Shown here one piece after another: positions 8,347 through 25,137 of a DNA stretch of 64,000 nt. The notes below the pieces were generated by a model. The model searched no databases and was not told the DNA's origin. It worked only from the letters and a program-made list of their open reading frames with translations. Position numbers and translations under genes: made by a program. The DNA lies in IMG/VR virus record IMGVR_UViG_3300024333_000003; one strand, written 5' to 3'. Each line of letters starts with the position of its first letter. Position 1 is the stretch's first letter. Source of the stretch: a virus. Its lineage: Duplodnaviria; Heunggongvirae; Uroviricota; Caudoviricetes.

Positions 8347-8536
8347 TAGGCACTAAAAGCATATGAAAATCCTTATCCACTTGATCAACTAACGCTTTCA
8401 CTTTTGGACTATCTTCCTCGTATATATCTAATTCCAATCTCCACACATGTGTAGATTTCATGCGTTTGATGCCTACGATATTAATTTTTATAGTTTTGTC
8501 TTGAATAGTTTCTTCAGATTCTTCCGTTGATTCCAT
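8321..8536 (-). CDS. hypothetical small acidic protein
   Basis: 71-aa ORF. Confidence 0.25.
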   Translation of the reverse strand: MESTEESEETIQDKTIKINIVGIKRMKSTHVWRLELDIYEEDSPKVKALVDQVDKDFHMLLVPIDNQQNNT

Positions 8537-10521
8537 AATCCCATACTTAATCCAGTGGCTAGGTCGATACCTATACCAGTGGCTATTCCTTTTCCAATAT
8601 TTTTATTAAACTCATTTTTCGATGAGGTGGCTGCAGTTACCGCAGTACCAATTACAGGGCCAGCAACCAATGATGGTAACAAATATTCTTTTGTCATATG
8701 TTTCCAATCTATTCCGCCCGTCTTTGGCATATTTGCCAAATTATCACCCAGAATCGGTATACTATCTTCGGTTTGCATTTGTTGTGGATCGTCCGGCGGT
8801 ATACGCATTTCCTTTAATCTGGCTATGTTTAATTGCGCATCTGGTCTTGTTGGTTTAAATTTCAGTTTAATTAATCCAGTCTTAGTAAATGCTGGATGAT
8901 AATTACTCATAGAATCTCCTAATACAGGCATTGGTGCAGATGTATCGTTTAATGTAGCTGTCTGAACAGTCTTTAAACCTTTATGTATTTTTGGATCCGG
9001 TGCTTTTTTGTGAAACGGTTCAAGTAATGCAGCTTGTTTGCGTCTTGGCCAAGTTTCACTTCTAATGTCTTTGTATACAGGCATACGAAGTGCACCACTT
9101 GGTAATTTCTCCTGCGCCAGCACACGCGCTACCTGTCCTACATATTTATTTGGAAGTTCAAACATTTCTTTTCTCATTTGATCTGTGAATCCACTACCAA
9201 CCCGACCAATTTCCTCTTTACCATTGTATGAATAAGTAAATCCACCAGCAGCTTTATTTTTATATTTTCCTTCCCCCGGAAATACCGACATTATACGTAC
9301 ATCATAATCTTTGAATAATTTTGCCTTCAATGGTACCGACTTATTTAAATCATATACTACAACGCCCTCTTGTGTTAACGGATGGTTGCCAGAACGTATT
9401 TCATCTAGTAATACTTGTTTTTCATTTATAGTCGTCGCTAGCGGCGGCATTTTTAATTCTGGTATTTCTTTTGAAATATTTTTTAGTATCTCGAGTTTTT
9501 CACTATATGGATGACTACTTACATCTTTACCTTGATAACGAACCACATCAAAAACTACATGATCAAGCGGCGCGTTTTCTTGGAGTTCTCTTGAACGCCA
9601 TACATTTGACAATAATCTAGCTGCAGTGTCTCTTGATGATAAAACATTACCAGATGTTCTATCTTTTGCAAATAGTTCTCCTAATAATACTGTTTTGCCT
9701 GGCATACTCTCCGGAACTATTGCAGTATGAAGTCCAGTACGAAACGTATGATTAATTAACTTTGCAGGTCCTTTCTTGCTTGGACGATAAGAGTATATTT
9801 CAATAGGCATTCCACGTCTAAGCAAAAACGCATTCATTGCTCCATCATACTTCGGTGCTAATATCTCGGTCGACTTTGTTACATCGATGGATTCAGGCTT
9901 TATACTTTGAAATTTAGGTTTCGAAATGTTAACTTCTGGTCGAGTATCTCGCGTAGGTGTAGAGTTCATAAACAGCCAATCATCCCCACCAGTATGTATT
10001 AAAGTATATTTTTCAGTGTCGCCATTAGACTTATACACATTAAAAGATACATGATCAGGTGTACTTTTAGTAACTTCAACCTTATCCGCTGAGAATAACT
10101 TTACTGTTCCAGCGCCGTAACCTGATTTGATTTCACCAGACCATGCCGAGTACTCTGCAGTATGATCAGGTTGATGCACAGCAAGAACTTTTTCGCCTGG
10201 AAACTTAGGTAAGTTACGAGCGGCCCAACTATGTGCAATTCCGGTACGTGGATCAACAAGTCGTAAATCGAAATGTTCTCCAGCCTTATGCGCTTTATGC
10301 TGTTGCACATTAAAGTGCCAATTTTCTGGTGTAGAGAATTCGCGTGGACGTGTTTTTACGTCCCGATCAGGAATACCTAAAGCACCTGCTTTTCCTTTAT
10401 GCTTAAAATATTCAACCTGTTGAAGTCTATGTACAGCCGCTGAACGTGATGAATACGGCCCGCCCAAATTCTTGCCTTTTTCGGACAATACGTGCCAACC
10501 GTCTTTTCTATGTACTATCAT
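8488..10521 (-). CDS. LigD-type 3'-phosphoesterase (PE) domain fused to an ATP-dependent polynucleotide ligase, with a C-terminal Gly-zipper/hydrophobic tail
   Basis: N-terminus EHFDLRLV...AHSWAARNLP...YGAGTVKLFSADK matches the LigD PE signature (H.D.RLE...SWAVPKGP...YGAG). Ligase motif I KYDG in APKYDGAMNAF. Motif IV EGVVVYDL. C-terminus VAGPVIGTAVTAA...GIATGIGIDLATGLSMGLW. Confidence 0.75.
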   Translation of the reverse strand: MIVHRKDGWHVLSEKGKNLGGPYSSRSAAVHRLQQVEYFKHKGKAGALGIPDRDVKTRPREFSTPENWHFNVQQHKAHKAGEHFDLRLVDPRTGIAHSWAARNLPKFPGEKVLAVHQPDHTAEYSAWSGEIKSGYGAGTVKLFSADKVEVTKSTPDHVSFNVYKSNGDTEKYTLIHTGGDDWLFMNSTPTRDTRPEVNISKPKFQSIKPESIDVTKSTEILAPKYDGAMNAFLLRRGMPIEIYSYRPSKKGPAKLINHTFRTGLHTAIVPESMPGKTVLLGELFAKDRTSGNVLSSRDTAARLLSNVWRSRELQENAPLDHVVFDVVRYQGKDVSSHPYSEKLEILKNISKEIPELKMPPLATTINEKQVLLDEIRSGNHPLTQEGVVVYDLNKSVPLKAKLFKDYDVRIMSVFPGEGKYKNKAAGGFTYSYNGKEEIGRVGSGFTDQMRKEMFELPNKYVGQVARVLAQEKLPSGALRMPVYKDIRSETWPRRKQAALLEPFHKKAPDPKIHKGLKTVQTATLNDTSAPMPVLGDSMSNYHPAFTKTGLIKLKFKPTRPDAQLNIARLKEMRIPPDDPQQMQTEDSIPILGDNLANMPKTGGIDWKHMTKEYLLPSLVAGPVIGTAVTAATSSKNEFNKNIGKGIATGIGIDLATGLSMGLWNQRKNLKKLFKTKL

Positions 10522-10540: not shown

Positions 10541-11566
10541 TTACGACCGGCGCAATACGTTTCTCCAATAAATTAAAAGATCCTTATTTATATCATCAAG
10601 ACCTTTTGTTGGTTTCCATCCAGTAGCTTGCATAAATTTAGTACAATCGGGTATTTGTAGTGTAATATCAGTAGGCCTGATTAATGCTAAATCTATTTCT
10701 ATTTTGAAATCAGTTGGTTGTATATAACTTTTAGATATTAAATCATTTAATGCTTCACCGACAGTACATGTGTGATTGCCACCTATATTATAAACTTCGC
10801 CGACTGTACATTTATTGGCGGCTAACCAATAAGCATGTACAGCATCGTCTATATGAGCATAAGTGCGCACAGAATTAAGATTTCCCACACGAATTATATA
10901 TTTTGAATTTCCATAAGAGCGATTATTTATATCTTGTCTATACTGCATTTCGCCTTGTACAATTTGATATGCAAAACTAGATAATGCAAATTTCCTTCCC
11001 CGGCGTGCACCTTCGTGACTAAACATCCTGGTAGTTATTATTTTTAATCCAAATGCTTTATGATAATACTGTGACATCAGATCGTGTCCGACTTTTGATA
11101 TACTATATGGATTTGCCGCTCTAATTGGGTTAGTTTCTTTTATAGGCACTTCTGAAGGATCCGGCATACCATATACTTCGCTGGAACTAACACTTACTAT
11201 AATCGGATCTATACGGCCATCTAATACCGCAAGATGTATTTCATCTAATAAATTGGCAGTTCCAATGATATTTGTTTGTAAAGTATGTATCGGATAAATA
11301 AAACTCGTTTCAGGAAAACTCTGGGCGGCAAAATGCCAAATAATATCTGGTTTTGCTTTTCGCAATAACAAACTTAGACTGCCACGATCCATCAGATCCG
11401 CCTCTATGAAATTGACTCGCGGATTACCGTACAAATGTACTATATTCTCGTCACGACTGCGCCAACGTCTAGAAGCGTAAATCATGCCATCAGTATTAGC
11501 TAATAAATAATCAATCATATGTGAACCAACAAATCCAGTGGCACCGGTTATAAGATAATTAGGCAT
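10541..11566 (-). CDS. NDP-sugar 4,6-dehydratase (GDP-mannose/dTDP-glucose dehydratase family)
   Basis: GATGFVGSHMIDYL Rossmann motif. KETNPIRAANPYSISKVGHDLM matches the dehydratase TxxPxxPxSPYxxSK motif. Confidence 0.75.
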   Translation of the reverse strand: MPNYLITGATGFVGSHMIDYLLANTDGMIYASRRWRSRDENIVHLYGNPRVNFIEADLMDRGSLSLLLRKAKPDIIWHFAAQSFPETSFIYPIHTLQTNIIGTANLLDEIHLAVLDGRIDPIIVSVSSSEVYGMPDPSEVPIKETNPIRAANPYSISKVGHDLMSQYYHKAFGLKIITTRMFSHEGARRGRKFALSSFAYQIVQGEMQYRQDINNRSYGNSKYIIRVGNLNSVRTYAHIDDAVHAYWLAANKCTVGEVYNIGGNHTCTVGEALNDLISKSYIQPTDFKIEIDLALIRPTDITLQIPDCTKFMQATGWKPTKGLDDINKDLLIYWRNVLRRS

Positions 11567-12068
11567 TTCTATCCCTTTCTGATATAATAATGTTCTCTTT
11601 TGCTATCGGCCAGTAAATTCCTAGATAAGGATTAAATGGAGCTATAGTAAACTGCGACGCACGTTCATAATATGTAGTCTGCTTATAACTATACACGATA
11701 ATGTCCGTCATAGCTAGCAGACTATTGCCGAATCCTGGCGGCACTAATAACTGATAACGATTTTTGTCATTTAGTGTAAATGCTTGCCATTGATAATATG
11801 TTTTAGACTCTTTGTTATTATCAATAATAACAACGTATATACTGCCGTACACACATTGTACCAATTTCCATGTTTTAAAATCACCGTGGAATCCTCGAAG
11901 GACATGCTTGTATGAAATTGAAATATCATCTTGTATAAATTCATCTGGTACATTTAATGCTTTGTAGTTCTCTTTGTTGAAGGTCTCTAAGTATTCGCCA
12001 CGAAAATCATAGAATACCTCTGGTATAATTAATTTTGCTTTTTCAAATTTAGTGTCTATTATCTTCAT
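11559..12068 (-). CDS. RmlC-like cupin (dTDP-4-dehydrorhamnose 3,5-epimerase family)
   Basis: 169-aa cupin-like protein (FHGDFKTWKLVQCVYGSIYVVIID) located in a sugar cluster. Confidence 0.6.
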   Translation of the reverse strand: MKIIDTKFEKAKLIIPEVFYDFRGEYLETFNKENYKALNVPDEFIQDDISISYKHVLRGFHGDFKTWKLVQCVYGSIYVVIIDNNKESKTYYQWQAFTLNDKNRYQLLVPPGFGNSLLAMTDIIVYSYKQTTYYERASQFTIAPFNPYLGIYWPIAKENIIISERDRNA

Positions 12069-13047
12069 TAAAATAATTCTTTCTCTTTAAATACTCTTCT
12101 TTGTTTGCTAAAAACCATTTCCACGTATGTTCTAATCCATCGCGTAATGTAGTGATAGGTTCAAAGTTTATTAACATACGCGCTTTCGTTATATCCATAA
12201 CGCGTTTTGGAAATCCGTTTGATTTTGTTGTATCCCATTCATGATTGAAATCAATAAACTCATGTAGTGTATCAACTAAATTTTTTATTGTATAATCCTT
12301 GCCACTGCCCAAATTAATATAATTTACATCTGGCATATAATGCATTGCTTGTATAATACCCTCAGCTACATCTACATTATAAGCAAAGTCACGAATTGCT
12401 GAACCATCCCCCCATATTTTTACAGGGTTCTCGCCCGAAGCAATACGATACATCAACGAAGGCACAACCATTGCATTATTTGGATCGAAGTTATCTCCAG
12501 GACCATAGACATTACAAGGACGCAATACGACAAAATTTTTAATACCGTATTGTTCTTTATAAGCCTGTATTTGTAACTCAGCCATGCGCTTTGCCCAACC
12601 TGGATACATATCCATCGGTAGCCCTTGCGTTATACCGTCTTCGTGAAATATTTCAGCACTTTCGTATGCGCCAATAGAACTAGTGAAGGCGACTTTTTTT
12701 ACGTTATTAATACGACATGCTTCAAGTATGTTTGTATTAAATTGTAACAAGGGCACAAAAAAACTAGCTGGTTTCGTTTTTGTAACTTCAATCGATCCTT
12801 TGATACCCGCCAAATGAAATACATAATCCATTCCTTTAGTTATAAACTCTGCGGCATTGAAATATCGTAGATCCAAATATACATATTCTGCTAATCGATT
12901 TGGCTGAAGATCGTCTAATGATACCACAGTAACGATGGCGCCGGCGTTAACTAAAATATCAACAACAGGACGACCTATTAATCCTGTGCCGCCTATTACC
13001 AAAACTTTCTTTCCTCTAAATTCATCGTATTCTGATTGTCTCAACAT
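12049..13047 (-). CDS. NAD-dependent sugar epimerase/reductase. The start is trimmed to the internal Met; the track ORF extends to 13128.
   Basis: KKVLVIGGTGLIGRPVVD Rossmann motif. TAATG overlap with the upstream SDR gene at 13047. Confidence 0.65.
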   Translation of the reverse strand: MLRQSEYDEFRGKKVLVIGGTGLIGRPVVDILVNAGAIVTVVSLDDLQPNRLAEYVYLDLRYFNAAEFITKGMDYVFHLAGIKGSIEVTKTKPASFFVPLLQFNTNILEACRINNVKKVAFTSSIGAYESAEIFHEDGITQGLPMDMYPGWAKRMAELQIQAYKEQYGIKNFVVLRPCNVYGPGDNFDPNNAMVVPSLMYRIASGENPVKIWGDGSAIRDFAYNVDVAEGIIQAMHYMPDVNYINLGSGKDYTIKNLVDTLHEFIDFNHEWDTTKSNGFPKRVMDITKARMLINFEPITTLRDGLEHTWKWFLANKEEYLKRKNYFNEDNRH

Positions 13048-13778
13048 TAAAAACTCCTGCTTTCTCCGCCATCTGCGGTTATACATGCTCCATTTATTAA
13101 ACTCGCCTCTTCCGAACATAAGAAGCAAACCAAAGCGGCAACTTCTTCCGGCGTTCCCATACGCCCTAACGGTAATGTTTCCTCGAATGTACTTCTTTCT
13201 TCCGGCGTTAATTTATCCCATCCCGTCCCAGGAATTGCTATCGCACCAGGACATACCGTATTAAATGTAATATTATGTCGAACCAGTTCTTTTCGTATCG
13301 CTAACGATTTCATTAACGCAATCTCAGCTGCTTTTGCTACAGTGAACCACGGACGTCCTCCGGATTCCTTACCATAGATGGACGAAATAGTAACAACGCG
13401 GCCAAAATTATTTTGTTTCATCCACGGCAACGCGGCCAGGGTTAACTGTCGTGCCGTTTCATAATTTTTTAATATCACACCATCCCAAGATTCTTCGGGA
13501 GTTGTTAAAACATCATCTGTACCCCAACGCCCTCCACCTCCTACATTATTTATAAGAATGTCGATATGTAGATTCTTTATCTGTTCAGCAACTTTTCCTA
13601 TATCTACTGTGTTCGTAAAATCGGCTTGTATACCTTCATATACATAGGAATGAGCTAAATCATCTACATGTCGAGCAGCTATATAAATATGTTCGTTACG
13701 GTCGTCGATAGCAAATCTGTTAGCGATGGCCCATCCGATACCATGCGTTCCGCCAGTTATTAGTACATTCATCTCCAA
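13047..13778 (-). CDS. short-chain dehydrogenase/reductase (SDR)
   Basis: LITGGTHGIGWAIANRFA TGxxxGxG motif. SIYGKE...YTVAKAA YxxxK motif. Confidence 0.7.
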   Translation of the reverse strand: MEMNVLITGGTHGIGWAIANRFAIDDRNEHIYIAARHVDDLAHSYVYEGIQADFTNTVDIGKVAEQIKNLHIDILINNVGGGGRWGTDDVLTTPEESWDGVILKNYETARQLTLAALPWMKQNNFGRVVTISSIYGKESGGRPWFTVAKAAEIALMKSLAIRKELVRHNITFNTVCPGAIAIPGTGWDKLTPEERSTFEETLPLGRMGTPEEVAALVCFLCSEEASLINGACITADGGESRSF

Positions 13779-14473
13779 TTCACCTTTCTTAAATGATATT
13801 TAGATGCATTTACATCTCTAGGTATACAGTACAATAGCCCACGATAAGTTTTCTGTGGGGCTGACCATATGAATTTTAACGTATCTCTCATTTCATCGTC
13901 AAGCAACAACGGATCCATTTTACCATCTATGAAGTCTTTCTCGGTTACTATATCGCAGGCTTCTTTATAATTGGTATAAAAAGAAAATCGCGGATTTATC
14001 TTCAAAAGGTTATCACGCACTATCTCAAAATCCAAAGGTATGCCGTCATATGTAATATGGCCTAATCCGTTTCTAGTATCAAAATCATGTATTATAATGA
14101 TACAGTTATTGGATGGGGCCATTGATGCTAATTCTTGTTTTACAACAAAACGTAATTCTTTAGGTAGACTGGGATCGTAAAAATGAGCATCCAAATAATA
14201 AATGAGCGGTTCATTTAATGTTGTAGATATATATTTTAAGAATTTTGAACTATCCATGTGGAAAATTTTTATATTATGTTTATTTATAGTTCTTAACACA
14301 ACATCAGTATAAAAATCCTCAATGATTTCACATGAATAAGCGTGTTTAAAATAACGCGCCGCTATTTGTATTCCTTGTCCTCGAAATGTGCCTGTTTCTA
14401 TATATGTTTCTACTTTAAATTCCCTTGCTAACCCCTTAATTGTATTCACGGCACCATGATCAGTCCACGACAT
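13769..14473 (-). CDS. putative SAM-dependent O-methyltransferase (TylF/MycF, macrocin-O-MTase-like)
   Basis: YIETGTFRGQG resembles the TylF-family E.G.(F/Y)RG.S motif. Confidence 0.5.
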   Translation of the reverse strand: MSWTDHGAVNTIKGLAREFKVETYIETGTFRGQGIQIAARYFKHAYSCEIIEDFYTDVVLRTINKHNIKIFHMDSSKFLKYISTTLNEPLIYYLDAHFYDPSLPKELRFVVKQELASMAPSNNCIIIIHDFDTRNGLGHITYDGIPLDFEIVRDNLLKINPRFSFYTNYKEACDIVTEKDFIDGKMDPLLLDDEMRDTLKFIWSAPQKTYRGLLYCIPRDVNASKYHLRKVNWR

Positions 14474-15371
14474 TATTACTCTCCACTTTCTTTAAAAATT
14501 TATTATTGATATAAATACGATCTCCCGCTATATTACAATATTCATCTTCAAACGCATAAACATTTAATTTCTTGTCCAACCCATGTTGTAATAAAAGCGA
14601 TGCTACAATAGAGGCTAATCCACCTATTTTTGAATGTTCCTCATATACTATTAATTCTTGATATGGTTTTATGGCTTTCAGAAATTCACCCTCATCTAAT
14701 GGTTTTAATCGCTCTACACAAATGCATCCAGCCTCCGGAAAAGTATCCAATGCTTCGTGCGTTAAAGTGCCATAAGTTAAAACGGCCCGAGTTCTTCCTT
14801 GCCTCAAAACATGAACATAATTATTGGAAGTTATTGCTGGTAAGTCTGGATAAATTCCTTTGTCAAGTCGAATATACCGAGGTGTCGTTGAGTTCTTGAG
14901 AATATGTACCGAATTCCTCATACTACTTTCATCAAAAGGTACAAAAATTTCAATATTAGGTAATGTATTCAAGATTCCTATGTCTTGTGGTATATGATGT
15001 GTTAATCCATCATAACTATAACTCATCCCACCACCGATGCCTATTAACGTAACAGGTAACTTCATAGCACATAGATTTACTTTTATCTGTTCTAAGGCAC
15101 GTTGAATAAGAAATGCGGCAATAGTGTATACATATATTCTCTTACCTTCCATTGCCATGCCGGCAGCAACGTTTATGAGATTCTGTTCTGATATACCAAC
15201 ATTGACAAATTGTTTTGGATATTTTGCTTTAAATTTGTCTAATTCGGTAGCACCCATGTCGGCTGATAATATAAATACATCTTTAGATGTATCTGCCAAT
15301 AATATTAATTCATTAAAAATAGCATCACGCAAGTCCATATGATAATTCCTCCAATGCAGAAATTGTATCAC
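14460..15371 (-). CDS. transketolase, C-terminal (pyrimidine-binding) subunit of a split transketolase
   Basis: FVNVGISEQNLINVAAGMA. Confidence 0.75.
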   Translation of the reverse strand: MIQFLHWRNYHMDLRDAIFNELILLADTSKDVFILSADMGATELDKFKAKYPKQFVNVGISEQNLINVAAGMAMEGKRIYVYTIAAFLIQRALEQIKVNLCAMKLPVTLIGIGGGMSYSYDGLTHHIPQDIGILNTLPNIEIFVPFDESSMRNSVHILKNSTTPRYIRLDKGIYPDLPAITSNNYVHVLRQGRTRAVLTYGTLTHEALDTFPEAGCICVERLKPLDEGEFLKAIKPYQELIVYEEHSKIGGLASIVASLLLQHGLDKKLNVYAFEDEYCNIAGDRIYINNKFLKKVESNNVVD

Positions 15372-16104
15372 CCTTATTTGGTAATCCGTGGTGACTTGTT
15401 ACATTATTCTCCATAAAGGATATTCCTTTACCTTTTACTGTACGAGCTATATAAACTGTCGGTGTTACTATAGATGCATTTTTATAGGCTTCTATCAAAT
15501 GCAAAATATTGTGTCCATCCACAACATACGACATCCATCCAAATGCCGACCATATTTTCATTAACTGTCTATATGTGGTGTTTTTATCCACAGCATCGGT
15601 GGACTGAAATCCATTGCAATCAACAATGACTCGTAAATTTGTTAGGGCATGAACAGCTGCAAAACGTACGGCTTCCCACACTGACCCCTCATTGCACTCG
15701 CCATCTCCCATTAATACAAAAACATTGTCCGGAGTATTATTAAGTTTTTTGGCAAAAGCTATTCCTGCGCCAATACCAAGTCCATTACCTAACGATCCTG
15801 TTATAGTTATGATTCCAGGAATATGATTGTTAGGATGCTCTGATAACAAACTACCATTTTTGCAGAATGTATGTAATTCGGTGTTAGATATAATGTTACG
15901 TTCCGCAAGTACAGTATATAAAGCAATCCCAGAATGGCCTTTACTTAAAATAAATTTAGTATCATTTGTAACAATATCGCCATAATATAACGACACTAAT
16001 ATGTCCATGCATGACAACGCACCGCCAAGATGACCGCGACCAGCCCTTACCGCAGTCTCAAACATTTTCTTACGTAATTGTTTAGCCTTTAAATTCAGAT
16101 CCAT
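15325..16104 (-). CDS. transketolase, N-terminal (ThDP-binding) subunit of a split transketolase
   Basis: GHLGGALSCMDILVSLYY. ThDP motif GDGECNEGSVWEA. Confidence 0.8.
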   Translation of the reverse strand: MDLNLKAKQLRKKMFETAVRAGRGHLGGALSCMDILVSLYYGDIVTNDTKFILSKGHSGIALYTVLAERNIISNTELHTFCKNGSLLSEHPNNHIPGIITITGSLGNGLGIGAGIAFAKKLNNTPDNVFVLMGDGECNEGSVWEAVRFAAVHALTNLRVIVDCNGFQSTDAVDKNTTYRQLMKIWSAFGWMSYVVDGHNILHLIEAYKNASIVTPTVYIARTVKGKGISFMENNVTSHHGLPNKGDTISALEELSYGLA

Positions 16105-17035
16105 ACCATTTCATTGTTTTAAAAATACCCTGTGAAAATGTATGTAGCGGCTTCCATCCATAGTCAACTAATGCTTTATTATTATCTAACGCTAGAATAG
16201 TTGGAATCGCGGGTTTAGAAGTGTCATATGTTATTTTTAAATCCTTGCCTGATTGCACTATAATACTTTCAACCATTTCTTTTACAGTTATAGCTTTGCC
16301 ATAAGACACATTCACTAAATCGTATGGTTTATGTTGTAAGTTAATAGCCAAATCAATAAAATGTACTACATCGTCGACATAGATCAAATCGCGTGCTGTA
16401 TCAGTGCCATTACCCCACACCGTAATCGTGTCTCCGTACTCCGCATCCATTACTTTTCTAACCGTGGCGCCGAATACATGTGAGTGCTCATAATCATATT
16501 TATCTTGTGGTCCAAAAGTATTCGAATGTCGTATAACCATATGTTTAGTACGACCTAATCTTGAATAAAATTCACACATTTTTTCGATATATACCTTAGT
16601 CCACCCGACACCAAAATAAGCCGGTACTATTTTATCCGATTCATCATAGTCCGTTTCTTTTCTCGGCGTGTCCCCAGGTTGATACATCACCCCACAACTC
16701 AGGAATATAAACTGCGGTACACTGTGTTCATAAGCCGCACGTAATAACAATGAGTTCATTACAGCATTGTCAGTTACATGTATGTAAGGTTTTGTTGTTA
16801 TATCTTTCGATCCAGATGTTGTTGCGGCTGCTTGAATTATTACATCATATGGGCCATAACTCATCACATGATCTACGCCTTTTTGCGTTGTTAGATCGCA
16901 CGATAATAATTTTATATTATCAGGACAATTTGCTTTAGTATGAGCAACGCCCACTACTTCGTAATCGTGTCTAAAATAATACGAAATATTATACCCCATA
17001 AATCCTGTGCAACCACAAACTAATATTTTTTTCAT
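16082..17035 (-). CDS. NAD-dependent epimerase/dehydratase family protein
   Basis: MKKILVCGCTGFMGYNISYYF Rossmann N-terminus. Confidence 0.7.
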   Translation of the reverse strand: MKKILVCGCTGFMGYNISYYFRHDYEVVGVAHTKANCPDNIKLLSCDLTTQKGVDHVMSYGPYDVIIQAAATTSGSKDITTKPYIHVTDNAVMNSLLLRAAYEHSVPQFIFLSCGVMYQPGDTPRKETDYDESDKIVPAYFGVGWTKVYIEKMCEFYSRLGRTKHMVIRHSNTFGPQDKYDYEHSHVFGATVRKVMDAEYGDTITVWGNGTDTARDLIYVDDVVHFIDLAINLQHKPYDLVNVSYGKAITVKEMVESIIVQSGKDLKITYDTSKPAIPTILALDNNKALVDYGWKPLHTFSQGIFKTMKWYGSEFKG

Positions 17036-17745
17036 GTCCAGCTTCCTTTTTGCCCCTGTGATATTGTTAATAGATCATTATCCTTATAATGATCTACTGG
17101 TTTCTTTCTTTTCTGTTTCCCATATTCCCCATAAAGAAAATTTAAATACATACGATCTGCCGCACCATAATTATTTAACAATTGATGTGGCTGTGTTTCA
17201 TATGCAGCGATATCCCACAAAATTTGCACAAGTCCGCCTAATTCATAAAGACGTAATGCTCGATCCAGGTCCCAATATAATCCTATAAAATTAGTATCAA
17301 GCCCTCCGATTTCATCCGATGTTTCTCTAGATAAGAATCCATTTAAGGGCACTAACGGACTAGTCATAACATTCATATTGTAATGTTGTATACTCTCAAT
17401 ACTTATAAGATCTGCGGAGGCATATCTACCCGAAAACATTGTTTTTTTATTCGGTGCTTTTTCCCACGCGTCTACAAATCTAGCTAACATATCGTCAGGA
17501 TAACACATATCATCAGCCGTATTCATTATAAATCGACCGGTGCAGGCTCGTCTGGTAATCTCAATTGCCTGTGCGGGTTTAACCGACGTATGAATGTGTT
17601 TAAAATTATCGGGTAAAGTATATGATGGTATGTTAGGACCAGCAAATATCATTTCAAAGGAAACGCCTGCCTTGCGAAAATTCTCGTATAACTCAAGCCA
17701 AATATTAGTACGTATTGCCGCACCAAAAATACTTACCTCGATCAT
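17032..17745 (-). CDS. hypothetical protein (sugar cluster)
   Basis: ORF tightly packed with its neighbours. Confidence 0.3.
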   Translation of the reverse strand: MIEVSIFGAAIRTNIWLELYENFRKAGVSFEMIFAGPNIPSYTLPDNFKHIHTSVKPAQAIEITRRACTGRFIMNTADDMCYPDDMLARFVDAWEKAPNKKTMFSGRYASADLISIESIQHYNMNVMTSPLVPLNGFLSRETSDEIGGLDTNFIGLYWDLDRALRLYELGGLVQILWDIAAYETQPHQLLNNYGAADRMYLNFLYGEYGKQKRKKPVDHYKDNDLLTISQGQKGSWT

Positions 17746-18302
17746 GCCTCCACCTTATGATATAGATCACCGTATTCAATTAATATTGTAGACTTACCAT
17801 CTTCTCGGGTATATGCAATATAATAAGCATATAATATATCATACTTACTTTTTAATTGGACAACCTCAATTTCTCCGCGACATAATAACTTCAATGCCTC
17901 AGTATGATCCTGACAATGTTGAGGACCAGGATATAGCGGCTCGATAGCGCCGACGCTAGTTCGTATTATAATTTTAGGTTTATACCCGCCTTCGGATACT
18001 TTACGTATATTTGCCAAATGGTTAGTTATTTGATTCGCAGCTATGATTAAAAAGTCGGCTCTTGGATAAATACTGATTGGAACTATTCCTTCCAAGGCCA
18101 TACCAATACTAAGCCCCATCTGGAAATCTTCGAATACTGGTAATTCAATACGTTTTTCCATTGGCACATCTACTAAACTTTTAAATAAGGCATGACCGTC
18201 CCACACCACTGATTGTCCGATAAACTTTGTATTTGATTGTTCGCCCAAATACTTCATTGCTCGCTTTAATTCATCAAAATAGTCCATTAGAAATGTATCC
18301 AT
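17742..18302 (-). CDS. ThDP-enzyme beta subunit-like (E1-beta / transketolase pyrimidine-binding domain only)
   Basis: LPVFEDFQMGLSIGMALEG...ADFLIIAANQI resembles E1-beta/TK Pyr domains. Too short to carry the C-terminal domain. Confidence 0.55.
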   Translation of the reverse strand: MDTFLMDYFDELKRAMKYLGEQSNTKFIGQSVVWDGHALFKSLVDVPMEKRIELPVFEDFQMGLSIGMALEGIVPISIYPRADFLIIAANQITNHLANIRKVSEGGYKPKIIIRTSVGAIEPLYPGPQHCQDHTEALKLLCRGEIEVVQLKSKYDILYAYYIAYTREDGKSTILIEYGDLYHKVEA

Positions 18303-18940
18303 TTCCCTATCCCTACATGCGGATAGCGTTCACGTTTATAACTAAAATATGATATATATTTTTCGGGGGATTCAATATCTACAAATAATTCGGCCGATCG
18401 TAATTTACCCCATGCTTCCTGTGTTGGCGTATTTGTGCTTAATCCATTATCTTCTATAACAAAATGAATAGGAAGATCATTACGTACCGAATACTTCACT
18501 GCTTCGTAAAAGATACCACTTTCACTGGCCATATCACCAACAAAGCACCACACCATGCGAGTTGTGTTAAGATTTAGTTTCAGTCCAGCCGCCGCACCAA
18601 CTGCAATAGGTAGTATACCACCAACGATAGCTGACGTATAAAGATGATGTTGTGGAGATTGAAATGATATGCTTTGGCCTGCCAATATTTTATTTAATAA
18701 CTCATCTTTGGGAACTCCGTGTAATAATGCATGATAATGATTTCGCCAAGTTGTAAACACCCAGTCATCTGGATGAATAAATTGAAATAATTCGATCAAA
18801 TAATCCTCATTATTAAAAGACAGGTGAACAGGAGCTTTTATTTGCCCTTGTTCCCATCGAGCAGCGACATCACTTTCAAAATCAATGAGCTCTTGTTTTG
18901 TAATAGTTATTTCTCTTTGTTTTTCTCTAAATAATTCCAT
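18287..18940 (-). CDS. ThDP-dependent E1 alpha-like subunit (acetoin/pyruvate dehydrogenase E1-alpha family, short form)
   Basis: ThDP-binding motif GDMASESGIFYEAVKYSVRNDLPIHFVIEDN (GD-x28-N). Confidence 0.6.
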   Translation of the reverse strand: MELFREKQREITITKQELIDFESDVAARWEQGQIKAPVHLSFNNEDYLIELFQFIHPDDWVFTTWRNHYHALLHGVPKDELLNKILAGQSISFQSPQHHLYTSAIVGGILPIAVGAAAGLKLNLNTTRMVWCFVGDMASESGIFYEAVKYSVRNDLPIHFVIEDNGLSTNTPTQEAWGKLRSAELFVDIESPEKYISYFSYKRERYPHVGIGKWIHF

Positions 18941-18942
18941 AA

Positions 18943-20304
18943 TTATGCTAATTTAAAAATTCTGTTTTCTATACTATACTTGTAATACTTATCTCTGACA
19001 AATATAAATAATTTATTAGGTTTTATATAGCGTATAAGTAATTTCATACACGCGCGTAATGGATTAGGTAATTTAGCCGCAAAACTTCCAAGTAAGAAAA
19101 TATTATAGCGTATTTCTTTTTCACGTTCAGAAAAAGACTTGTACGGGGATTTCTTTGAACAGTCTGTCATATCTCCTACATATGTTGGATCAAGAATACC
19201 TTTTTGTAAACTATATTCATAAAGTTTGGTACCATTCATTGGTACTGTAGTTGAACAGGCCAAATATGTAACCTTACCTTTATAACCAAAATCAATGATA
19301 TCCATATCATCTTTCACCGTAGATTCAGGAGCCGCCAACATAAAATTAACCCACGTGCGTATTCCTGTATCTGCGATCATACGCGCTGTTTTCGTTACAT
19401 CGATCTTTTGCATATGTCGTCCCAATACTGCTTCGCGCACATGTTCTGACATACTGTCAACGGATAGATGAACGGAGTAGCAATTGGCGGACTTCAACAT
19501 AGCAAGTAAATCTTTATCTACGTGGTCAATGCGTAAATAGCAATTGAACGGCAAATCTACTTCCTTCTTATATCTACGGGTAAACGCATCAAGCCAACTA
19601 TCTGCTTTTAATGCGAAAAGATCGTCCCCGAATTTTATGAACTCTGTGCGATAATTTTTACGAACACGTTGTATTTCATCAATAATTCGATCTGGTGAAA
19701 ACCGTCTAGCAGATTTACCCTTCCCTTTATACAAAGCACGATACGCGCTATTTGCACAATAATGACAAAAGAACGGGCATCCCCTTGTAGCGTAAAAGGT
19801 TTTTTTAGGAGTATTCTTTAAGAAGGAATTATTCAACACCAAATCCCTGTCCGCTTCGGGCAAAATATTTAAGTCACTAATGAGTGGTCGTATAGGATTT
19901 ATCTTTTCTTTTGTTATTATATTTAAAACATTGTCGTAGGATTCATTATTTTCTACACATTTAAGAAAGTCATCAAATACAAGATCTCCCTCGCCAACAC
20001 AGAAAGCGTCGATGGCCGTGTTTTCGAAATCTTGCGGTGCAAAAGTAATCTGAGGCCCACCAGCTATAGATAAAAAATTGTGTTTTGTTTTCGCTAATTT
20101 ATGTGCATCAATCATTTCTTTATATCCATAAACATTTAAAGAATAAGCTACAATGTCCGGTTTATATGAATTCAAAACAGTTGGATAATCTGTTAAAGCA
20201 CAGAAAAATGTCTGATGATCACGTTTTTTAGCAATAGCGGATAAGTGCGCTATCGCTATATGATCAGCATAATCCAATTCATATATACAGAACAAAATTT
20301 TCAT
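18943..20304 (-). CDS. B12-binding radical SAM enzyme (class B radical-SAM methyltransferase-like). The start is trimmed to MKILF; the track ORF extends to 20382.
   Basis: CxxxCxxC radical-SAM motif in RGCPFFCHYCANSAY, preceded by an N-terminal B12-binding-like domain. ATGA overlap with the upstream gene. Confidence 0.7.
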   Translation of the reverse strand: MKILFCIYELDYADHIAIAHLSAIAKKRDHQTFFCALTDYPTVLNSYKPDIVAYSLNVYGYKEMIDAHKLAKTKHNFLSIAGGPQITFAPQDFENTAIDAFCVGEGDLVFDDFLKCVENNESYDNVLNIITKEKINPIRPLISDLNILPEADRDLVLNNSFLKNTPKKTFYATRGCPFFCHYCANSAYRALYKGKGKSARRFSPDRIIDEIQRVRKNYRTEFIKFGDDLFALKADSWLDAFTRRYKKEVDLPFNCYLRIDHVDKDLLAMLKSANCYSVHLSVDSMSEHVREAVLGRHMQKIDVTKTARMIADTGIRTWVNFMLAAPESTVKDDMDIIDFGYKGKVTYLACSTTVPMNGTKLYEYSLQKGILDPTYVGDMTDCSKKSPYKSFSEREKEIRYNIFLLGSFAAKLPNPLRACMKLLIRYIKPNKLFIFVRDKYYKYSIENRIFKLA

Positions 20305-21149
20305 ACAGTAAATTCTTCTAATGTAAATGGAGACGCGCCCCATGTGGCGGCGTTCTTGGTAGCACCTGCATTTATTAAACAACCGTAGATGTCATTTATT
20401 CGTGAGCCGGTTCCACCGAAACCATATCCCGGATGACTCATATGCATGGTAGCGATATCAAAACATGGTTTTACGGGATATCCTGCGAGAATAGCTTTCT
20501 TATTTAAATTACTATCAGTGTACCCTTTATAAAAATATTCTTCTTCATAACCACGTATTTCAAATAAAACGTCTTTATGAAAAAACTGAAAATCACCACA
20601 ACAATCAAGGATAGACCACACATCACCAGCGCAGGCCCCACTAAAACCGTGCCCACCATATCTTGGTAGATTTTCCCTAAAATACCTTTGAACAACTTCT
20701 ATATCTTTAGCATTAAATTGTTTTAATTCCGCAAAATCTACATCATGCCTAGAAATGACCCAACCTATTTTTGGGTCTGCGGTTAATTTTTCAAATGATG
20801 CTCGATCGGGTACAATCGAATCTAATGATGTTATTAATATCCAGTCTCCTGTGGACCTACGTATTGCCATATTATTACCTAGTAACCCACAACTTGCCGG
20901 CGCACCAGGATCGTTCTTTGTGACTTGATCTGTTTGTGCCTTATTTACTTTTAATACTCGTAATTTACCTGTTTTATTTATGGCATCTCCAAGCGCTGTT
21001 ATCAAGTCTATACCTGACGGTGAATTCCAATCAACATAAATTACTTCATCGAATGTGGCGGTCAATGCATTAATACTAAATGGTACTCGTAAATGTAAAT
21101 CACCCCGATAACCATCATTTCTACAAGTTGCGACGGCAGTTAATTTCAT
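20301..21149 (-). CDS. hypothetical protein, possible GT-A glycosyltransferase
   Basis: EVIYVDWNSPSG weakly resembles the GT2 hhVVDDGS motif. Confidence 0.3.
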   Translation of the reverse strand: MKLTAVATCRNDGYRGDLHLRVPFSINALTATFDEVIYVDWNSPSGIDLITALGDAINKTGKLRVLKVNKAQTDQVTKNDPGAPASCGLLGNNMAIRRSTGDWILITSLDSIVPDRASFEKLTADPKIGWVISRHDVDFAELKQFNAKDIEVVQRYFRENLPRYGGHGFSGACAGDVWSILDCCGDFQFFHKDVLFEIRGYEEEYFYKGYTDSNLNKKAILAGYPVKPCFDIATMHMSHPGYGFGGTGSRINDIYGCLINAGATKNAATWGASPFTLEEFTV

Positions 21150-21631
21150 TTGTCGCCTTTAAATATATTCCAATTACCGAACTCCTGAATTAACCCTGCA
21201 GCCAGCGCATCTATTTTTAAGTCTACACGCTCTCCGCGTTCACGCGAAATAACATTCTTAGCTGTATTACGTACACCATTTATCGAGTGCGTCAATTTTA
21301 AAAGTTTATCTTGTTCTGAACCACCAGCACGCGCCTTGCTTTCGTTCTCCCATATATACCTATTGGTTAGCATAACTATTAATATAGCACGAATCATATC
21401 AGCACTAACTGACGGTGTTGTAGTTAATAACATATTGATATCGGCCATGATAAGTTTTTGTTCTTCTTCGTATGCTGCAGAATTCTCAGATGCGAATATT
21501 GACTTCAAGATAACTATACTAAGACGATCTATAAGTTCGGCAAAAGTAGGTACATAGTAACGTGTTTGAGCCTCCATTAATTTATCCTTTGTTTTAAAGT
21601 GGTAAAAAAGTCTCCAATTAAATGAGACCAT
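21146..21631 (-). CDS. hypothetical protein
   Basis: ORF. Confidence 0.3.
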   Translation of the reverse strand: MVSFNWRLFYHFKTKDKLMEAQTRYYVPTFAELIDRLSIVILKSIFASENSAAYEEEQKLIMADINMLLTTTPSVSADMIRAILIVMLTNRYIWENESKARAGGSEQDKLLKLTHSINGVRNTAKNVISRERGERVDLKIDALAAGLIQEFGNWNIFKGDK

Positions 21632-22419
21632 TTAAATTTATTTACAATCACTAAGCGTTCATTTTCATCCATTGGTCGCGGGGTATCTTTTAGAATTTCA
21701 ACTAATTGTTCTACTATATCTTTGTCCTTGACTATTGTATATGCATGTTCCCGATACCAATCATAAGTTGGATCATCTGGTATAATCGGGCGTGCCCCGC
21801 AAAACAAGCCTTCAATTGCCATTAATTCGAAGCCTTCAATAAAACGTAACGCTGATATATATTGTGTGCCATTAAGTACCTCAGCGAACTCATTATCTGG
21901 CATATAATCTAAGTATCTGTAGAATCGTTTGTCCCATCCAAAATTTTGTCCGGTATGATATAAAGTTTGTTTTAATTGTTTGACTGCTTCATATACTTTA
22001 TCTATGGCCTCAGTTTCAGCGATATGCCCCGTAGCAATTACTTTAATGGCACGATTACCCGTATTTGTGCGACAAAAAACATTATCGTCTGCACCCCATG
22101 GCATACCATAATAAGGGATATCTTTATCAGTATATTTACGTAAGTCATGAAATGAAACGGCCATAATAGATTGTGCCCAATATTTTGCGTAATCTATTTC
22201 ATGCGCACTGGCGGTAAAATAACAATGTTGAATCACCACTTTCGGTTTAGGCATCTCTAATGCAGGAATTTCTCCGCCTCCAACTACATGAACAATCATA
22301 ATGTCACAATTTTCATAGTTGGTCCATTCGACCCAATCAGGCGCATACCTATGCAACGCATCTGAAATGCGTTTAAAAGCTATACCCCATTCATTTCTAC
22401 GAAATTCAAATATCTTCAT
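21577..22419 (-). CDS. hypothetical protein (first gene of the sugar cluster)
   Basis: ORF. Confidence 0.3.
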   Translation of the reverse strand: MKIFEFRRNEWGIAFKRISDALHRYAPDWVEWTNYENCDIMIVHVVGGGEIPALEMPKPKVVIQHCYFTASAHEIDYAKYWAQSIMAVSFHDLRKYTDKDIPYYGMPWGADDNVFCRTNTGNRAIKVIATGHIAETEAIDKVYEAVKQLKQTLYHTGQNFGWDKRFYRYLDYMPDNEFAEVLNGTQYISALRFIEGFELMAIEGLFCGARPIIPDDPTYDWYREHAYTIVKDKDIVEQLVEILKDTPRPMDENERLVIVNKFKWSHLIGDFFTTLKQRIN

Positions 22420-22700
22420 AATGTCTTAAATTTCACTTTCTTTATTTTATTACTTTTCTTTAAATTGCATCGCTCACACGTAATTTGTAAATTACGAACA
22501 CCATTCATACGAAAGGGAGTACGTTTTTTGGAATACCGTGATACTGGTATTATATGATCAAAATGGTATATCTCGTGTTCTATTTGCTGTTTGCATATTT
22601 CGCATGTCAATACTCCGTATTTGTTTATATTGTCACTTTTAACTTTCTCGAGCACAGATGTAAATATTTTAGTGCGCTTTATGTGCCTATCTCCATCCAT
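22416..22700 (-). CDS. HNH endonuclease
   Basis: CEICKQQ...HFDHIIPVS...NLQITCERCNLKKSNK matches the HNH motif. Confidence 0.7.
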   Translation of the reverse strand: MDGDRHIKRTKIFTSVLEKVKSDNINKYGVLTCEICKQQIEHEIYHFDHIIPVSRYSKKRTPFRMNGVRNLQITCERCNLKKSNKIKKVKFKTL

Positions 22701-24645: not shown

Positions 24646-24653
24646 AGTGCCTC

Positions 24654-25034: not shown

Positions 25035-25077
25035 TTGTTCTCCTATTAATATACTAAAAAATTATATAAATGTCAAC

Positions 25078-25107: not shown

Positions 25108-25137
25108 TTTAAAATAATGTACCGCTTTTACCAAATG

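Follow-up and report, generated by a model that had tools for sequence, protein, structure and literature searches.

A variable gene island for a predicted, heavily tailored deoxysugar among the late genes of an uncultured jumbo phage

What would a tailed phage make with a row of 15 genes rich in predicted sugar enzymes, and onto which molecule would the product be placed? These questions are raised by a gene island in the virus record IMGVR_UViG_3300024333_000003 (IMG/VR; Caudoviricetes). The window, by which we mean the whole stretch of 64,000 nucleotides (nt) that was analysed, carries this island together with an adjoining HNH endonuclease gene at positions 10541-22700 (Table 1). Our analysis did support, at the level of protein families, a phage-encoded pathway for a heavily tailored deoxysugar that comprises two thiamine diphosphate (ThDP) dependent enzyme systems, a radical S-adenosylmethionine (SAM) enzyme and candidate glycosyltransferases, as had been proposed in an earlier sequence-only reading of this locus.

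Predicted enzymes and chemistry of the island

All 16 open reading frames (ORFs) listed at 10541-22700 lie on the minus strand and run from 22700 to 10541, namely the HNH gene (g1) followed by the 15 island genes (g2-g16). Spacing at the island junctions is between -23 and +2 nt, with ATGA overlaps at six and TAATG overlaps at two of them, and the 16 ORFs therefore form a single translationally coupled unit. The ORF listing and the junction analysis bear out the earlier description of 15 co-directional, overlap-coupled genes. Searches against Pfam and NCBIfam backed the family assignments with E-values as low as ~1e-64, among them the three extended short-chain dehydrogenase/reductases (SDRs) of the epimerase/dehydratase type (g16, g14 and g9), the RmlC-like cupin (g15) and the classical SDR (g13) that had been recognized before. 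In none of the proteins g1-g16 did we detect a hydrophobic 19-mer fitting a transmembrane helix.

The sugar-nucleotide enzymes give an indication of the substrate. The predicted dehydratase g16 scored 216 bits against the Pfam family GDP_Man_Dehyd (cut-off 27), and its translation contains GATGFVGS, SSSEVYG and YSISK, the motifs expected of an extended SDR. Among PDB structures it ranked GDP-D-glycero-D-manno-heptose 4,6-dehydratase (7US5, E 5e-61) ahead of Rmd (2e-44), GMD (~1e-27) and RmlB (~1e-24), so that it is closest to GDP-specific enzymes rather than to those of dTDP-, UDP- or CDP-sugars; its score against the NCBIfam gmd equivalog was 109, below the cut-off of 415. The cupin g15 reached 146 bits versus 27 for dTDP_sugar_isom and has RGFHG, WKLVQC and the C-terminal Tyr residues in its sequence. 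It fell below the NCBIfam rmlC equivalog cut-off (137.1 versus 155.75) and matched RmlC about as well as the GDP-heptose 3,5-epimerases of Campylobacter jejuni (both E ~1e-30). The best PDB match of g14 was GDP-4-keto-6-deoxy-mannose epimerase/reductase (E 7e-32), and g9 matched the GDP-L-fucose synthase (GFS) model of NCBIfam at E 6e-34, below its cut-off. Because of the matches of g16, g14 and g15, and because GHMP kinase and nucleotidyltransferase genes occur in the homologous bacterial clusters, the implied chemistry points to a GDP-activated heptose or mannose of the 6-deoxy type.

It had been noted before that the cluster lacks a nucleotidyltransferase, and this holds well beyond the cluster: none was found in the cluster, in the window or in 10 kb on either side, nor were sugar-activation genes found among window ORFs of at least 120 amino acids (aa) or the called genes of the 10-kb flanks. 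Since the phage encodes none of the activation steps in this range, we infer that a host-made GDP-sugar serves as pathway input. The earlier suggestion that a host NDP-hexose is diverted is thus retained as to its host origin, and the type is changed from a generic NDP-hexose to GDP-heptose or GDP-mannose.

Of the two ThDP systems, the split transketolase with N- and C-terminal subunits (g10 and g11) is confirmed by Pfam and by the split-transketolase structures of Carboxydothermus hydrogenoformans. The PP domain and the PYR and TKC domains lie on separate subunits, all above the Pfam thresholds (for g11, Transket_pyr E 2e-26 and Transketolase_C E 4e-9), as is the case in split-chain transketolases, and the best PDB matches were the split-chain entries 6YAK for g10 (E 6e-51) and 6YAJ for g11 (E 1e-32); the nearest relatives of the pair were this split enzyme and human transketolase. 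Aligned to the human enzyme, g10 keeps GDG...DCN and the equivalents of four active-site His residues, and g11 keeps the cofactor Glu in ISEQN and the equivalents of Arg318 and Arg474, with His416 replaced by Gly and Ser345 by Ala. Both subunits scored below the NCBIfam transketolase cut-offs.

The second ThDP system (g6 and g7) had been compared to E1 alpha/beta. The pair appears to share the E1 fold class in a reduced architecture: g6 does match E1_dh, over profile positions 6-172 of 300, and has a ThDP motif of the form GDM...x28...N, in which D136 and N165 are invariant across relatives. The partner g7 contains the motif FEDFQ and showed weak matches to Transket_pyr (E 1.8e-3) and to the NCBIfam pyruvate dehydrogenase E1-beta model (5e-7). 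With 217 and 186 aa and no Transketolase_C domain, the two proteins are truncated and do not have the architecture of alpha-KADH2 enzymes, in which an E1-alpha of ~320 aa is combined with an E1-beta of PYR and Transketolase_C domains. Minimal two-gene ThDP pairs of this kind, with a PP protein of ~210 aa and a PYR protein of ~160-186 aa and without Transketolase_C, recur in other loci (Table 1); they come in E1-like and transketolase-like flavours with the motif GDM, SDG or GDA.

ThDP enzymes are known to branch keto sugars. E1 alpha/beta-type alpha-KADH2 enzymes do so in ~120 antibiotic clusters and YerE-like enzymes in sugars of lipopolysaccharide (LPS), and keto-sugar branching by split-gene transketolases has been proposed, though it is unproven and all 13 known cases are from Streptomyces (review PMC12247030). 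In the island, the 4,6-dehydratase g16 and the ketoreductase-type SDR g13 share the operon with the ThDP genes, which is the genomic context of keto-sugar branching. By analogy, it is reasonable to suggest that the island ThDP enzymes add a two-carbon branch to a keto sugar.

The earlier reading described g5 as a B12-binding radical SAM enzyme of the class-B C-methyltransferase type. The radical SAM core is well supported (Radical_SAM E 5e-15, 56.5 bits versus 29.5), with the CxxxCxxC core present as CPFFCHYC. The Pfam B12-binding match reached 25.9 bits, below the gathering cut-off of 32.1; bacterial orthologues carry a precomputed match. Membership in the methylase clades of GenK, Fom3 and TokK was not found (best NCBIfam score 81, cut-off 360), and the nearest solved structure was AprD4 (3e-12), followed by TokK (7e-7), a true cobalamin methylase. 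AprD4 is a radical SAM diol dehydratase that acts together with a reductase, AprD3, in the C3' deoxygenation of apramycin; it is part of the B12-radical-SAM similarity network and binds no cobalamin. Because the nearest solved relative binds no cobalamin, a class-B methylase is only one option for g5, and its predicted reaction is left open between C-methylation and radical deoxygenation. The protein has the same length and domain order as AprD4, and in two of the bacterial clusters (L005 and L008, see below) it adjoins an SDR, which is reminiscent of the pairing of AprD4 with a reductase. The similarity to AprD4 and TokK is, however, remote, and the g5 family appears to be a distinct, highly conserved clade. 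A phosphonate pathway, consisting of a split decarboxylase and a Fom3-like radical SAM enzyme, was also considered and rejected, as there is no phosphoenolpyruvate mutase and the domain order PP to PYR is that of transketolase and E1.

Several proteins without a family assignment had been regarded as possible glycosyltransferases. For g2 this was supported by structure prediction: the AlphaFold2 model (predicted local distance difference test, pLDDT, 95.9) matched ManT, BshA, PimA and MshA in Foldseek searches against the PDB (TMq 0.7-0.79, E ~1e-11). There was no Pfam GT1 match at sequence level; the invariant E195-x7-E203 forms an EX7E motif, and a PHROG glycosyltransferase match was obtained at E 1.5e-4. 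According to the model, g2 is a compact GT-B, GT4-like glycosyltransferase. The signals for g4 and g8 are fainter. Some of the 649 homologues of g4 are fused to methyltransferase domains, two of 28 homologues weakly match Pfam GT2 (E 2.6e-4), and D40, D110 and G185-D186 are invariant; a weak hhalign match connects g8 to the g4 family over the region GGxD...D.D. In the related phage locus L010, g4 is 51% identical. The protein g3 gave sub-threshold matches to DUF4254 and TaqI_C only and is, with 76% identity, the best-conserved island protein in L010.

Sequence and profile searches of g12 and g2 against the PDB were insignificant, and in both cases structure prediction resolved the fold. No Pfam match was obtained for g12, whose family has no annotation and counts at least 265 homologues; E26-T27-G28 is invariant among them. 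The AlphaFold2 model of g12 (pLDDT 94.6) gave 641 PDB matches at E<=1e-3 in Foldseek, of which the best 50 all have the SAM-methyltransferase fold (one being the cyclase SpnF) at a TM-score of ~0.47. The modelled fold is that of class I SAM-methyltransferases, and use of SAM is predicted. The sequence-only reading had named a TylF-like O-methyltransferase here. This assignment was not upheld beyond the methyltransferase fold of g12: no cluster protein matched Pfam TylF even at E 10, and TylF, MycF and NovP are absent from the best 50 of the 641 Foldseek matches.

The following order of reactions may be proposed. Host-made GDP-D-glycero-D-manno-heptose or GDP-mannose would be taken up, no kinase or nucleotidyltransferase being encoded here, and dehydrated by g16 to a 4-keto-6-deoxy intermediate that g15 would epimerise. 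A two-carbon (hydroxy)acyl branch would be added to the keto sugar by g10/g11 and/or g6/g7; alternatively, the transketolase would supply a heptose-phosphate precursor. The ring and side-chain ketones would be reduced by the SDRs g9, g13 and g14, an unactivated carbon would be C-methylated or a hydroxyl removed in an AprD4-like manner by g5, and g12 would add a methyl group. Finally, g2, and possibly g4 and g8 too, would transfer the finished GDP-sugar in the cytoplasm onto a phage product.

Genomic position and relatives of the island

The island is embedded in a late head-to-tail block, between head/adaptor genes on one side and a ligase gene and the tail sheath gene on the other, and the entire stretch from ~38.9 kb to 4.1 kb runs on the minus strand. 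The cluster had been thought not to be a morphogenesis module by position; this is contradicted by its location, with the major head protein gene on one side and the tail sheath gene on the other, all on one strand. The window also encodes a split family-A DNA polymerase and a sigma factor, and the phage that carries the island is an uncultured myovirus of roughly 215 kb. Among 50,697 phage records, neither the cluster (megablast) nor g5 and g2 (tblastn) had a match, and the lineage is without a sequenced isolate; its capsid is most similar to those of Salmonella phage Arash (33% identity), Vibrio phage D69 and Bacillus phage G.

Most island enzymes have their best homologues in bacteria, as would be expected if the cluster were an assembly artefact or contaminating bacterial DNA. 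This explanation has effectively been refuted already. The exact g16 protein with identical neighbours on both sides was found in 16 contigs, loci were returned from four Logan (SRA) runs, and eight index blocks hold carriers of 0.2-1 Mb; identical junctions are thus present in independent assemblies of at least four runs. The cluster has the base composition of the phage backbone (36.5% GC, with 24-31% at third codon positions), whereas the bacterial loci L005-L008 have 41-67% GC and the environmental contig L009 has 32%. The same architecture is moreover found in diverged relatives with 40-76% protein identity. The assumption that the cluster is phage-encoded and not chimeric therefore stands.

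The putative glycosyltransferase g2 is a rare protein, with 32 homologues among 5.8 billion clusters. Most of the longer carriers (80-215 kb) look like related phages, and one carrier is a short contig labelled Clostridia. Homologues were found in the loci L010, L011 and L013-L015 and in 135 IMG/VR contigs; scanning metagenomes with the g2 alignment brought in nothing but short or distant loci. In L010 (215 kb), L011 (203 kb) and L013 (130 kb), head/adaptor genes are followed by the 126-, 158- and 260-aa proteins, in some cases an HNH gene, g2 and sugar genes. The upstream-boundary proteins are 36-81% identical to those of L010 and L011 in tblastn, the 158-aa protein being SU10-adaptor-like in L011 (Pfam SU10_adaptor). 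Downstream, the island is bounded by a LigD-like ligase gene in L011 and L013; the locus of L010 breaks off within the island. The sugar genes themselves differ: in L010 they include g3 and g4, a g12-like protein, DJ-1, RmlC, a dehydratase and a more complete E1 pair, along with another radical SAM enzyme of 25% identity, while L011 and L013 encode a different SDR, several unknown proteins and a mini transketolase pair, to which L013 adds an NTP transferase. As these three loci keep the upstream genes and g2 while their sugar genes differ, the comparison shows that this jumbo-phage lineage has, at a constant place in the genome, a sugar island of changing content, with g2 as its apparent anchor.

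In the more distant phages L014 and L015, the g2 relatives lie beside the tape measure gene. Relatives of g2 are paired with a second glycosyltransferase of ~400 aa (GT406-type) in 59 of 80 IMG/VR loci, sometimes with DegT- or dehydratase-like genes nearby. This GT406-type partner is located between the portal and head protease genes in Synechococcus phage S-CBS4, and beside genes for a nucleotidyltransferase, an epimerase and a methyltransferase in Tetrasphaera phage TJE1.

The HNH gene g1 next to g2 had been taken as a hint at horizontal acquisition. Homologues of g1 occupy the same site in L010 (61% identity) and L013, and because the gene is conserved at this site and is one of several in the genome, it is no mark of recent acquisition. 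At least four HNH genes are present in ~70 kb (22416-22700, 41801-42310, 60094-60624 and, in the flanking locus L097, 5101-5730), and free-standing homing-type nucleases appear to be common here.

The enzymes of the island lead to a bacterial gene cluster, which was compared through the contexts of five g5 homologues (L005-L008 and L009). Proteins of the g5 family share 54-60% identity across phyla and occur in metagenome-assembled genomes (MAGs) of Desulfobacterales, Syntrophales, Verrucomicrobia, Omnitrophota, Parcubacteria, Thermodesulfovibrionales and an alphaproteobacterium. Recurrent members of the cluster are a 4,6-dehydratase, a NUDIX protein, E1 alpha/beta or transketolase N/C subunits, an unknown protein of ~250-310 aa, a GFS-like SDR, the radical SAM enzyme, RmlC and a further SDR; an adh_short protein is encoded in L005 and L007, and GHMP kinase and NTP transferase genes in L005, L006 and L008. 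In L005-L008, identities are 59-64% for g14, 54-58% for g5, 43-48% for g15 and 42-45% for g16, and g13 has a match in L005 and L007 alone (48-49%). Conservation is highest for g5 and the SDR g14, whose genes are neighbours in L005 and L008.

A second set of phage genes resembles L009, which carries counterparts of g5 (60%), g9 (48%), the transketolase N/C subunits (38-39%) and the mini-E1 pair (50% for g6, 57% for g7), as well as of g8 (36%), the last directly upstream of its radical SAM gene. As g16, g15, g14, g13 and g5 match the L005-L008 type and g8, g9, the transketolase and the mini-E1 pair match L009, the phage operon appears to be a mosaic of two module types. These comparisons show the island enzymes to be, as far as homology can tell, phage-adapted copies from a widespread and uncharacterised bacterial GDP-sugar cluster, for which we found no describing paper in the literature. 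An IMG/VR scan with g5 gave no matches. In the profile scan of genome contigs with the g5 alignment, the matches listed were only paralogues of up to 37% identity, all from MAGs, with no cultured organism of known glycan among them.

In the uncultured alphaproteobacterium L006 (LT599022, 16397-21371), the cluster ends beside the flagellar hook genes flgD and flgE, and the bacterial sugar may possibly decorate flagellin or another surface protein. The environmental contig L009 (ENA ERZ27247128 k141_967114, positions 1-21365, GC 32%), which may be bacterial or viral, consists of 21 kb of co-directional sugar genes. C-C bond-forming enzymes are unusually dense on it: besides NeuB, DegT and a ketopantoate hydroxymethyltransferase it encodes two YerE-like ThDP enzymes, one split transketolase and two mini ThDP pairs, to which two radical SAM enzymes and several methyltransferases are added.

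Candidate acceptors and known systems

As acceptor of the sugar, we consider a virion structural protein most likely, with somewhat less than an even chance of being right; the particles would then carry a variable glycan coat. This acceptor is favoured because of the fixed position of the island within late morphogenesis genes, because related glycosyltransferase cassettes recur in head and tail modules of other phages, because the enzyme set is purely soluble with no base-activating gene nearby, and because hypervariability would be expected of a surface feature. As is typical of virion glycosylation, glycosyltransferase genes are found within or beside morphogenesis genes, both for the island and for the g2 relatives and their GT406-type partner.

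A number of observations weigh against this pathway and its acceptor. The chemical steps are all inferred from family membership. None of the island proteins reaches an NCBIfam equivalog cut-off, and all are therefore divergent family members. g5 may not bind cobalamin, g4 and g8 are weak GT-A candidates, and the mini-E1 pair is truncated with GDM in place of GDG. In g11, the two phosphate-binding Arg residues typical of sugar-phosphate transketolases are retained, which would suit precursor supply equally well. The late-gene position is circumstantial for virion glycosylation, a DNA ligase gene shares the late block, and GT4-like folds also occur in phage DNA glycosyltransferases (Pyle et al.). 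The sequence covered, the window and its 10-kb flanks, amounts to ~83 kb of the ~215-kb genome, with ~130 kb lying outside.

Some of these points would fit a sugar placed by g2, g4 or g8 on a modified base of the phage DNA (e.g. 5-hydroxymethyl-pyrimidine), which would block host nucleases as in T4 and in the phage clusters for glycan hypermodification. Phage GT-B enzymes resembling BshA and MshA glycosylate 5-hydroxymethylcytosine, heptose included, and the respective clusters can adjoin structural genes and contain epimerases (Pyle et al.). The fold matches of g2 include a glycosyltransferase of Bacillus phage SP-15 (rank 28), genes for the DNA ligase, the family-A polymerase and a MazZ-like dGTP diphosphohydrolase are nearby, the last hinting at manipulation of the nucleotide pool, and a variable island would be compatible with an arms race against restriction systems. 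We nevertheless regard DNA hypermodification as unlikely. No dCMP/dUMP hydroxymethylase, TET/JBP dioxygenase or C5-methyltransferase was detected among the window ORFs with 120 aa or more, the genes called in the 10-kb flanks (~83 kb in all) or the 20-kb loci of L010, L011 and L013, and the g2 relatives adjoin the tape measure gene (L014, L015) and their GT406-type partner the portal and head genes (S-CBS4), not replication genes. Looking for nucleotidyltransferases and hydroxymethylases beyond the cluster had been suggested by the sequence-only reading; within these ~83 kb there were none. The soluble glycosyltransferases might instead feed a new GDP-sugar into the LPS, capsule, S-layer or flagellin of the host, where changed receptors would lead to superinfection exclusion or release. 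The enzymes do stem from bacterial clusters of a cell-surface type, one of them beside flgD/flgE, cyanophages are rich in genes for 'cell wall synthesis and modification' that are read in this way (PMC12801897), and the nearest isolate-phage homologue of g16 (39% identity) lies in a cyanophage heptose cluster with phosphoheptose isomerase (GmhA), heptose kinase, nucleotidyltransferase and glycosyltransferases. Such remodelling of the host envelope is a minor possibility in our opinion, given that the island has no flippase, polymerase, polyprenyl-phosphate transferase or any membrane protein (the 16 proteins include none of the membrane transferases, flippases or polymerases of Gtr or Wzy/Oac-type seroconversion), that no lysogeny functions were seen in the window, that the anchor g2, with its few homologues, is specific to the phage lineage, and that the island is embedded in a structural block, unlike typical seroconversion modules.

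The ThDP enzymes also allow for a role outside the branching reaction. Because the phosphate-binding Arg residues are kept and transketolase pairs lie beside GHMP kinase and NTP transferase genes in L006, L008 and L013, precursor supply by g10/g11 stays an alternative function for this enzyme within the pathway. The same neighbourhoods, together with the closeness of g10/g11 to a true split transketolase with its catalytic His and both Arg residues, would be in line with a metabolic role, in which the transketolase, the ThDP pair and the SDRs rewire pentose-phosphate or keto-acid metabolism or make a diffusible molecule. We consider a non-glycan role of this kind improbable: the genes are translationally coupled with those for the 4,6-dehydratase, the RmlC-like epimerase and the glycosyltransferases, and the same partners recur in bacteria, which argues for one sugar-nucleotide pathway.

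Parts of the putative pathway resemble described systems. The GDP-6-deoxy-heptose pathways of C. jejuni, with DmhA/WcbK-type dehydratases, RmlC-like C3/C5 epimerases and GFS-like C4 reductases, are matched by g16, g15 and g14/g9, and the HddA/HddC logic is mirrored by the GHMP kinase and nucleotidyltransferase genes of the homologous bacterial clusters. In contrast to the C. jejuni capsule pathways, the phage lacks kinase, nucleotidyltransferase and isomerase; it has in addition a radical SAM enzyme, a methyltransferase-fold protein and the two ThDP enzymes, and its specificity is a prediction. With the alpha-KADH2 enzymes (aldgamycin, kibdelomycin KbDH, avilamycin-type), the split transketolases of miharamycin and amipurimycin and, as an analogue in LPS, YerE, the phage shares the same gene logic of an E1-alpha/beta-like pair and a split transketolase beside a 4-keto-sugar-forming dehydratase and ketoreductases. 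However, the known branching cases are actinomycete antibiotic clusters acting on dTDP-sugars, while the island is viral and has GDP-type enzymes, and its E1-like pair is minimal in comparison, with no C-terminal domain and with GDM instead of GDG. We found no characterised GDP-sugar pathway in the literature that combines a B12-type radical SAM enzyme with ThDP enzymes, and nothing on DUF4254 that is relevant to this gene combination. To our knowledge, sugar chemistry with two ThDP carboligases and a radical SAM enzyme has been described only for antibiotics of actinomycetes and for a few LPS sugars, never for a virus.

Among phages, the capsid and tail-tube glycans of mycobacteriophages and the glycosyltransferase cassettes of S-CBS4 and TJE1 are comparable in that soluble glycosyltransferases are encoded in or beside morphogenesis genes, as here, and cassettes of the S-CBS4/TJE1 type sometimes also contain a methyltransferase, epimerase or nucleotidyltransferase. 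Known cassettes consist of two to five genes for common sugars, whereas the island has 15 genes with predicted C-C bond-forming and radical chemistry. The heptose/LPS-like clusters of cyanomyoviruses (SynMITS9220M01, Bellamy, S-SCSM-type), which hold the g16 homologue mentioned above, belong to an unrelated phage lineage and are without ThDP enzymes or a B12-type radical SAM enzyme. The bacterial cluster is the closest counterpart, with direct homology and partial synteny to the phage genes in MAGs of Desulfobacterota, Verrucomicrobiota, Thermodesulfovibrionales, Omnitrophota and an alphaproteobacterium. It has activation genes (kinase, nucleotidyltransferase, NUDIX) and full-length E1 subunits that the phage version lacks; the latter, by contrast, brings glycosyltransferases of its own and includes, as a mosaic, a module of the L009 type.

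Phage sugar genes and glycosyltransferases are known as such, and glycosylation of virions and of DNA has each been shown in a few phages. What would be new is the scale and chemistry, a viral pathway of 15 genes with two ThDP-dependent C-C bond-forming systems and a radical SAM enzyme, and its fixed site in a structural block, where one conserved transferase serves as anchor and the content varies between relatives. The island further exposes a widespread and apparently unstudied bacterial GDP-sugar cluster, which would give E1- and transketolase-type ThDP enzymes, as well as a very conserved radical SAM/SDR pair, a part in the synthesis of cell-surface glycans rather than of antibiotics, the setting in which such branching enzymes are known, and the compact mini ThDP pairs might be of interest as biocatalysts. 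If the glycan is indeed on the virions, particles would have variable glycan 'serotypes', with a bearing on receptor or decoy binding, stability and recognition. One could go further and see in this jumbo-phage lineage a serotype-like locus of its own, a conserved glycosyltransferase followed by a swappable island that builds a branched higher-carbon deoxysugar coating the virion; this is possible, though we think it doubtful. With the same reserve, island turnover might diversify particle surfaces like bacterial O-antigen loci do.

Feature positions and further observations

Table 1. Positions of the island genes, their boundaries, phage functions of the window and recurring minimal ThDP pairs. 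Positions refer to the window unless another locus is named.
Feature	Position	Strand	Basis or remark
g1, HNH endonuclease, 94 aa	22416..22700	-	Pfam HNH E 2.6e-8; immediately upstream of island
g2, predicted compact GT-B (GT4-like) glycosyltransferase, 280 aa	21577..22419	-	AlphaFold2 and Foldseek
g3, 143 aa, no family assigned	21146..21577	-	sub-threshold matches only
g4, 282 aa, soluble, possible GT-A-type glycosyltransferase	20301..21149	-	weak GT2 signal in homologues
g5, radical SAM protein with N-terminal B12-binding-type Rossmann domain, 453 aa from ATG at 20304	18943..20304	-	Pfam
g6, mini E1-alpha-like ThDP (PP-domain) subunit, 217 aa	18287..18940	-	E1_dh E 4e-15
g7, mini E1-beta-like PYR-domain subunit, 186 aa	17742..18302	-	weak Pfam/NCBIfam
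g8, 237 aa, soluble, possible GT-A/GT2-like transferase	17032..17745	-	Glycos_transf_2 E 0.015
g9, extended SDR, GDP-fucose-synthase-like (epimerase/reductase type)	16082..17035	-	Epimerase E 2e-34
g10, split transketolase N-terminal (ThDP/PP) subunit	15325..16104	-	Transketolase_N E 6e-25
g11, split transketolase C-terminal (PYR + TKC) subunit, 292 aa from ATG at 15338	14460..15338	-	Pfam
g12, predicted class I SAM-methyltransferase-fold protein, 234 aa	13769..14473	-	AlphaFold2 and Foldseek
g13, classical SDR (ketoreductase type)	13047..13772	-	adh_short_C2 E 1e-38
g14, extended SDR, GDP-fucose-synthase-like	12049..13047	-	Epimerase E 5e-43
g15, RmlC-like cupin, putative 3,5- (or 3-/5-) epimerase of a 4-keto-6-deoxy sugar nucleotide	11559..12068	-	dTDP_sugar_isom E 1e-42
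g16, putative GDP-sugar 4,6-dehydratase (GDP-heptose/mannose type)	10541..11566	-	GDP_Man_Dehyd E 9e-64
LigD-like DNA ligase, downstream island boundary	8488..10521	-	LigD_N, ligase and OB domains
126-aa, 158-aa and 260-aa proteins, upstream island boundary	23387..25034	-	tblastn to L010/L011; downstream of major head gene
Tail sheath	4809-6452	-	phage function in window
Major head protein	25138-26052	-	PHROG
Head protease-like protein	28276-30042		
Large terminase, 886 aa, with LAGLIDADG intein-type insert	31993-34653	-	
Mini ThDP pair, window (g6/g7)	17742-18940		
Mini ThDP pairs, L009	16523-17718, 19168-20275		
Mini ThDP pair, L011	15249-16332		
Mini ThDP pair, L013	15670-16756		
Mini ThDP pair, L031	2492-3575		

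Just upstream of the island, a perfect 12-bp hairpin at 23350-23377 follows a small opposite-strand ORF (23157-23351) that is kept in L010 and L013. A strong hairpin terminator (25048-25110, minus strand) lies directly after the major head gene and is followed by a sigma-70-like promoter with 11 of 12 matching positions. Promoter-like sites in the window as a whole were at chance level (78 observed, 81 expected), and neither tRNA genes nor Rfam families were found in the window. The LigD-like protein downstream of the island, a ligase of the repair type, is composed of a 3'-phosphoesterase domain, an ATP-dependent ligase domain and an OB domain.

The LAGLIDADG-type insert of the terminase, at residues ~396-461, is probably an intein. 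A PHROG thymidylate-synthase match at residues 138-270 of the terminase was considered as a possible base-modifying enzyme and rejected, as Pfam shows an intein-type insert of the LAGLIDADG kind; the match does not overlap the LAGLIDADG segment and probably reflects the intein-type insert. The family-A DNA polymerase is encoded on the plus strand by two ORFs ~250 bp apart, 1362-2378 (exonuclease and N-terminal part) and 2631-3431 (C-terminal part), and no Rfam intron was detected in the window. Just downstream of these, at 3697-4074 (plus strand), a 125-aa protein contains the N-terminal dATP/dGTP diphosphohydrolase domain PF18909 (E 9e-19), as does MazZ of phages with 2-aminoadenine genomes, which may indicate a modified nucleotide pool or base.

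Further genes suggest additional functions of this phage. The window encodes on its plus strand a HAD domain of 'Swiss-army-knife' RNA-repair proteins (40347-40829, E 1e-14) and an SPFH/Band 7 protein (60861-61820, E 9e-20). Nine kb past the window end, L098 (13576-21218) holds genes for an NAD synthase, an RNA ligase, a ClpP protease and a protein with PARP and WGR domains, a gene set that suggests NAD/ADP-ribosylation and RNA-repair functions.

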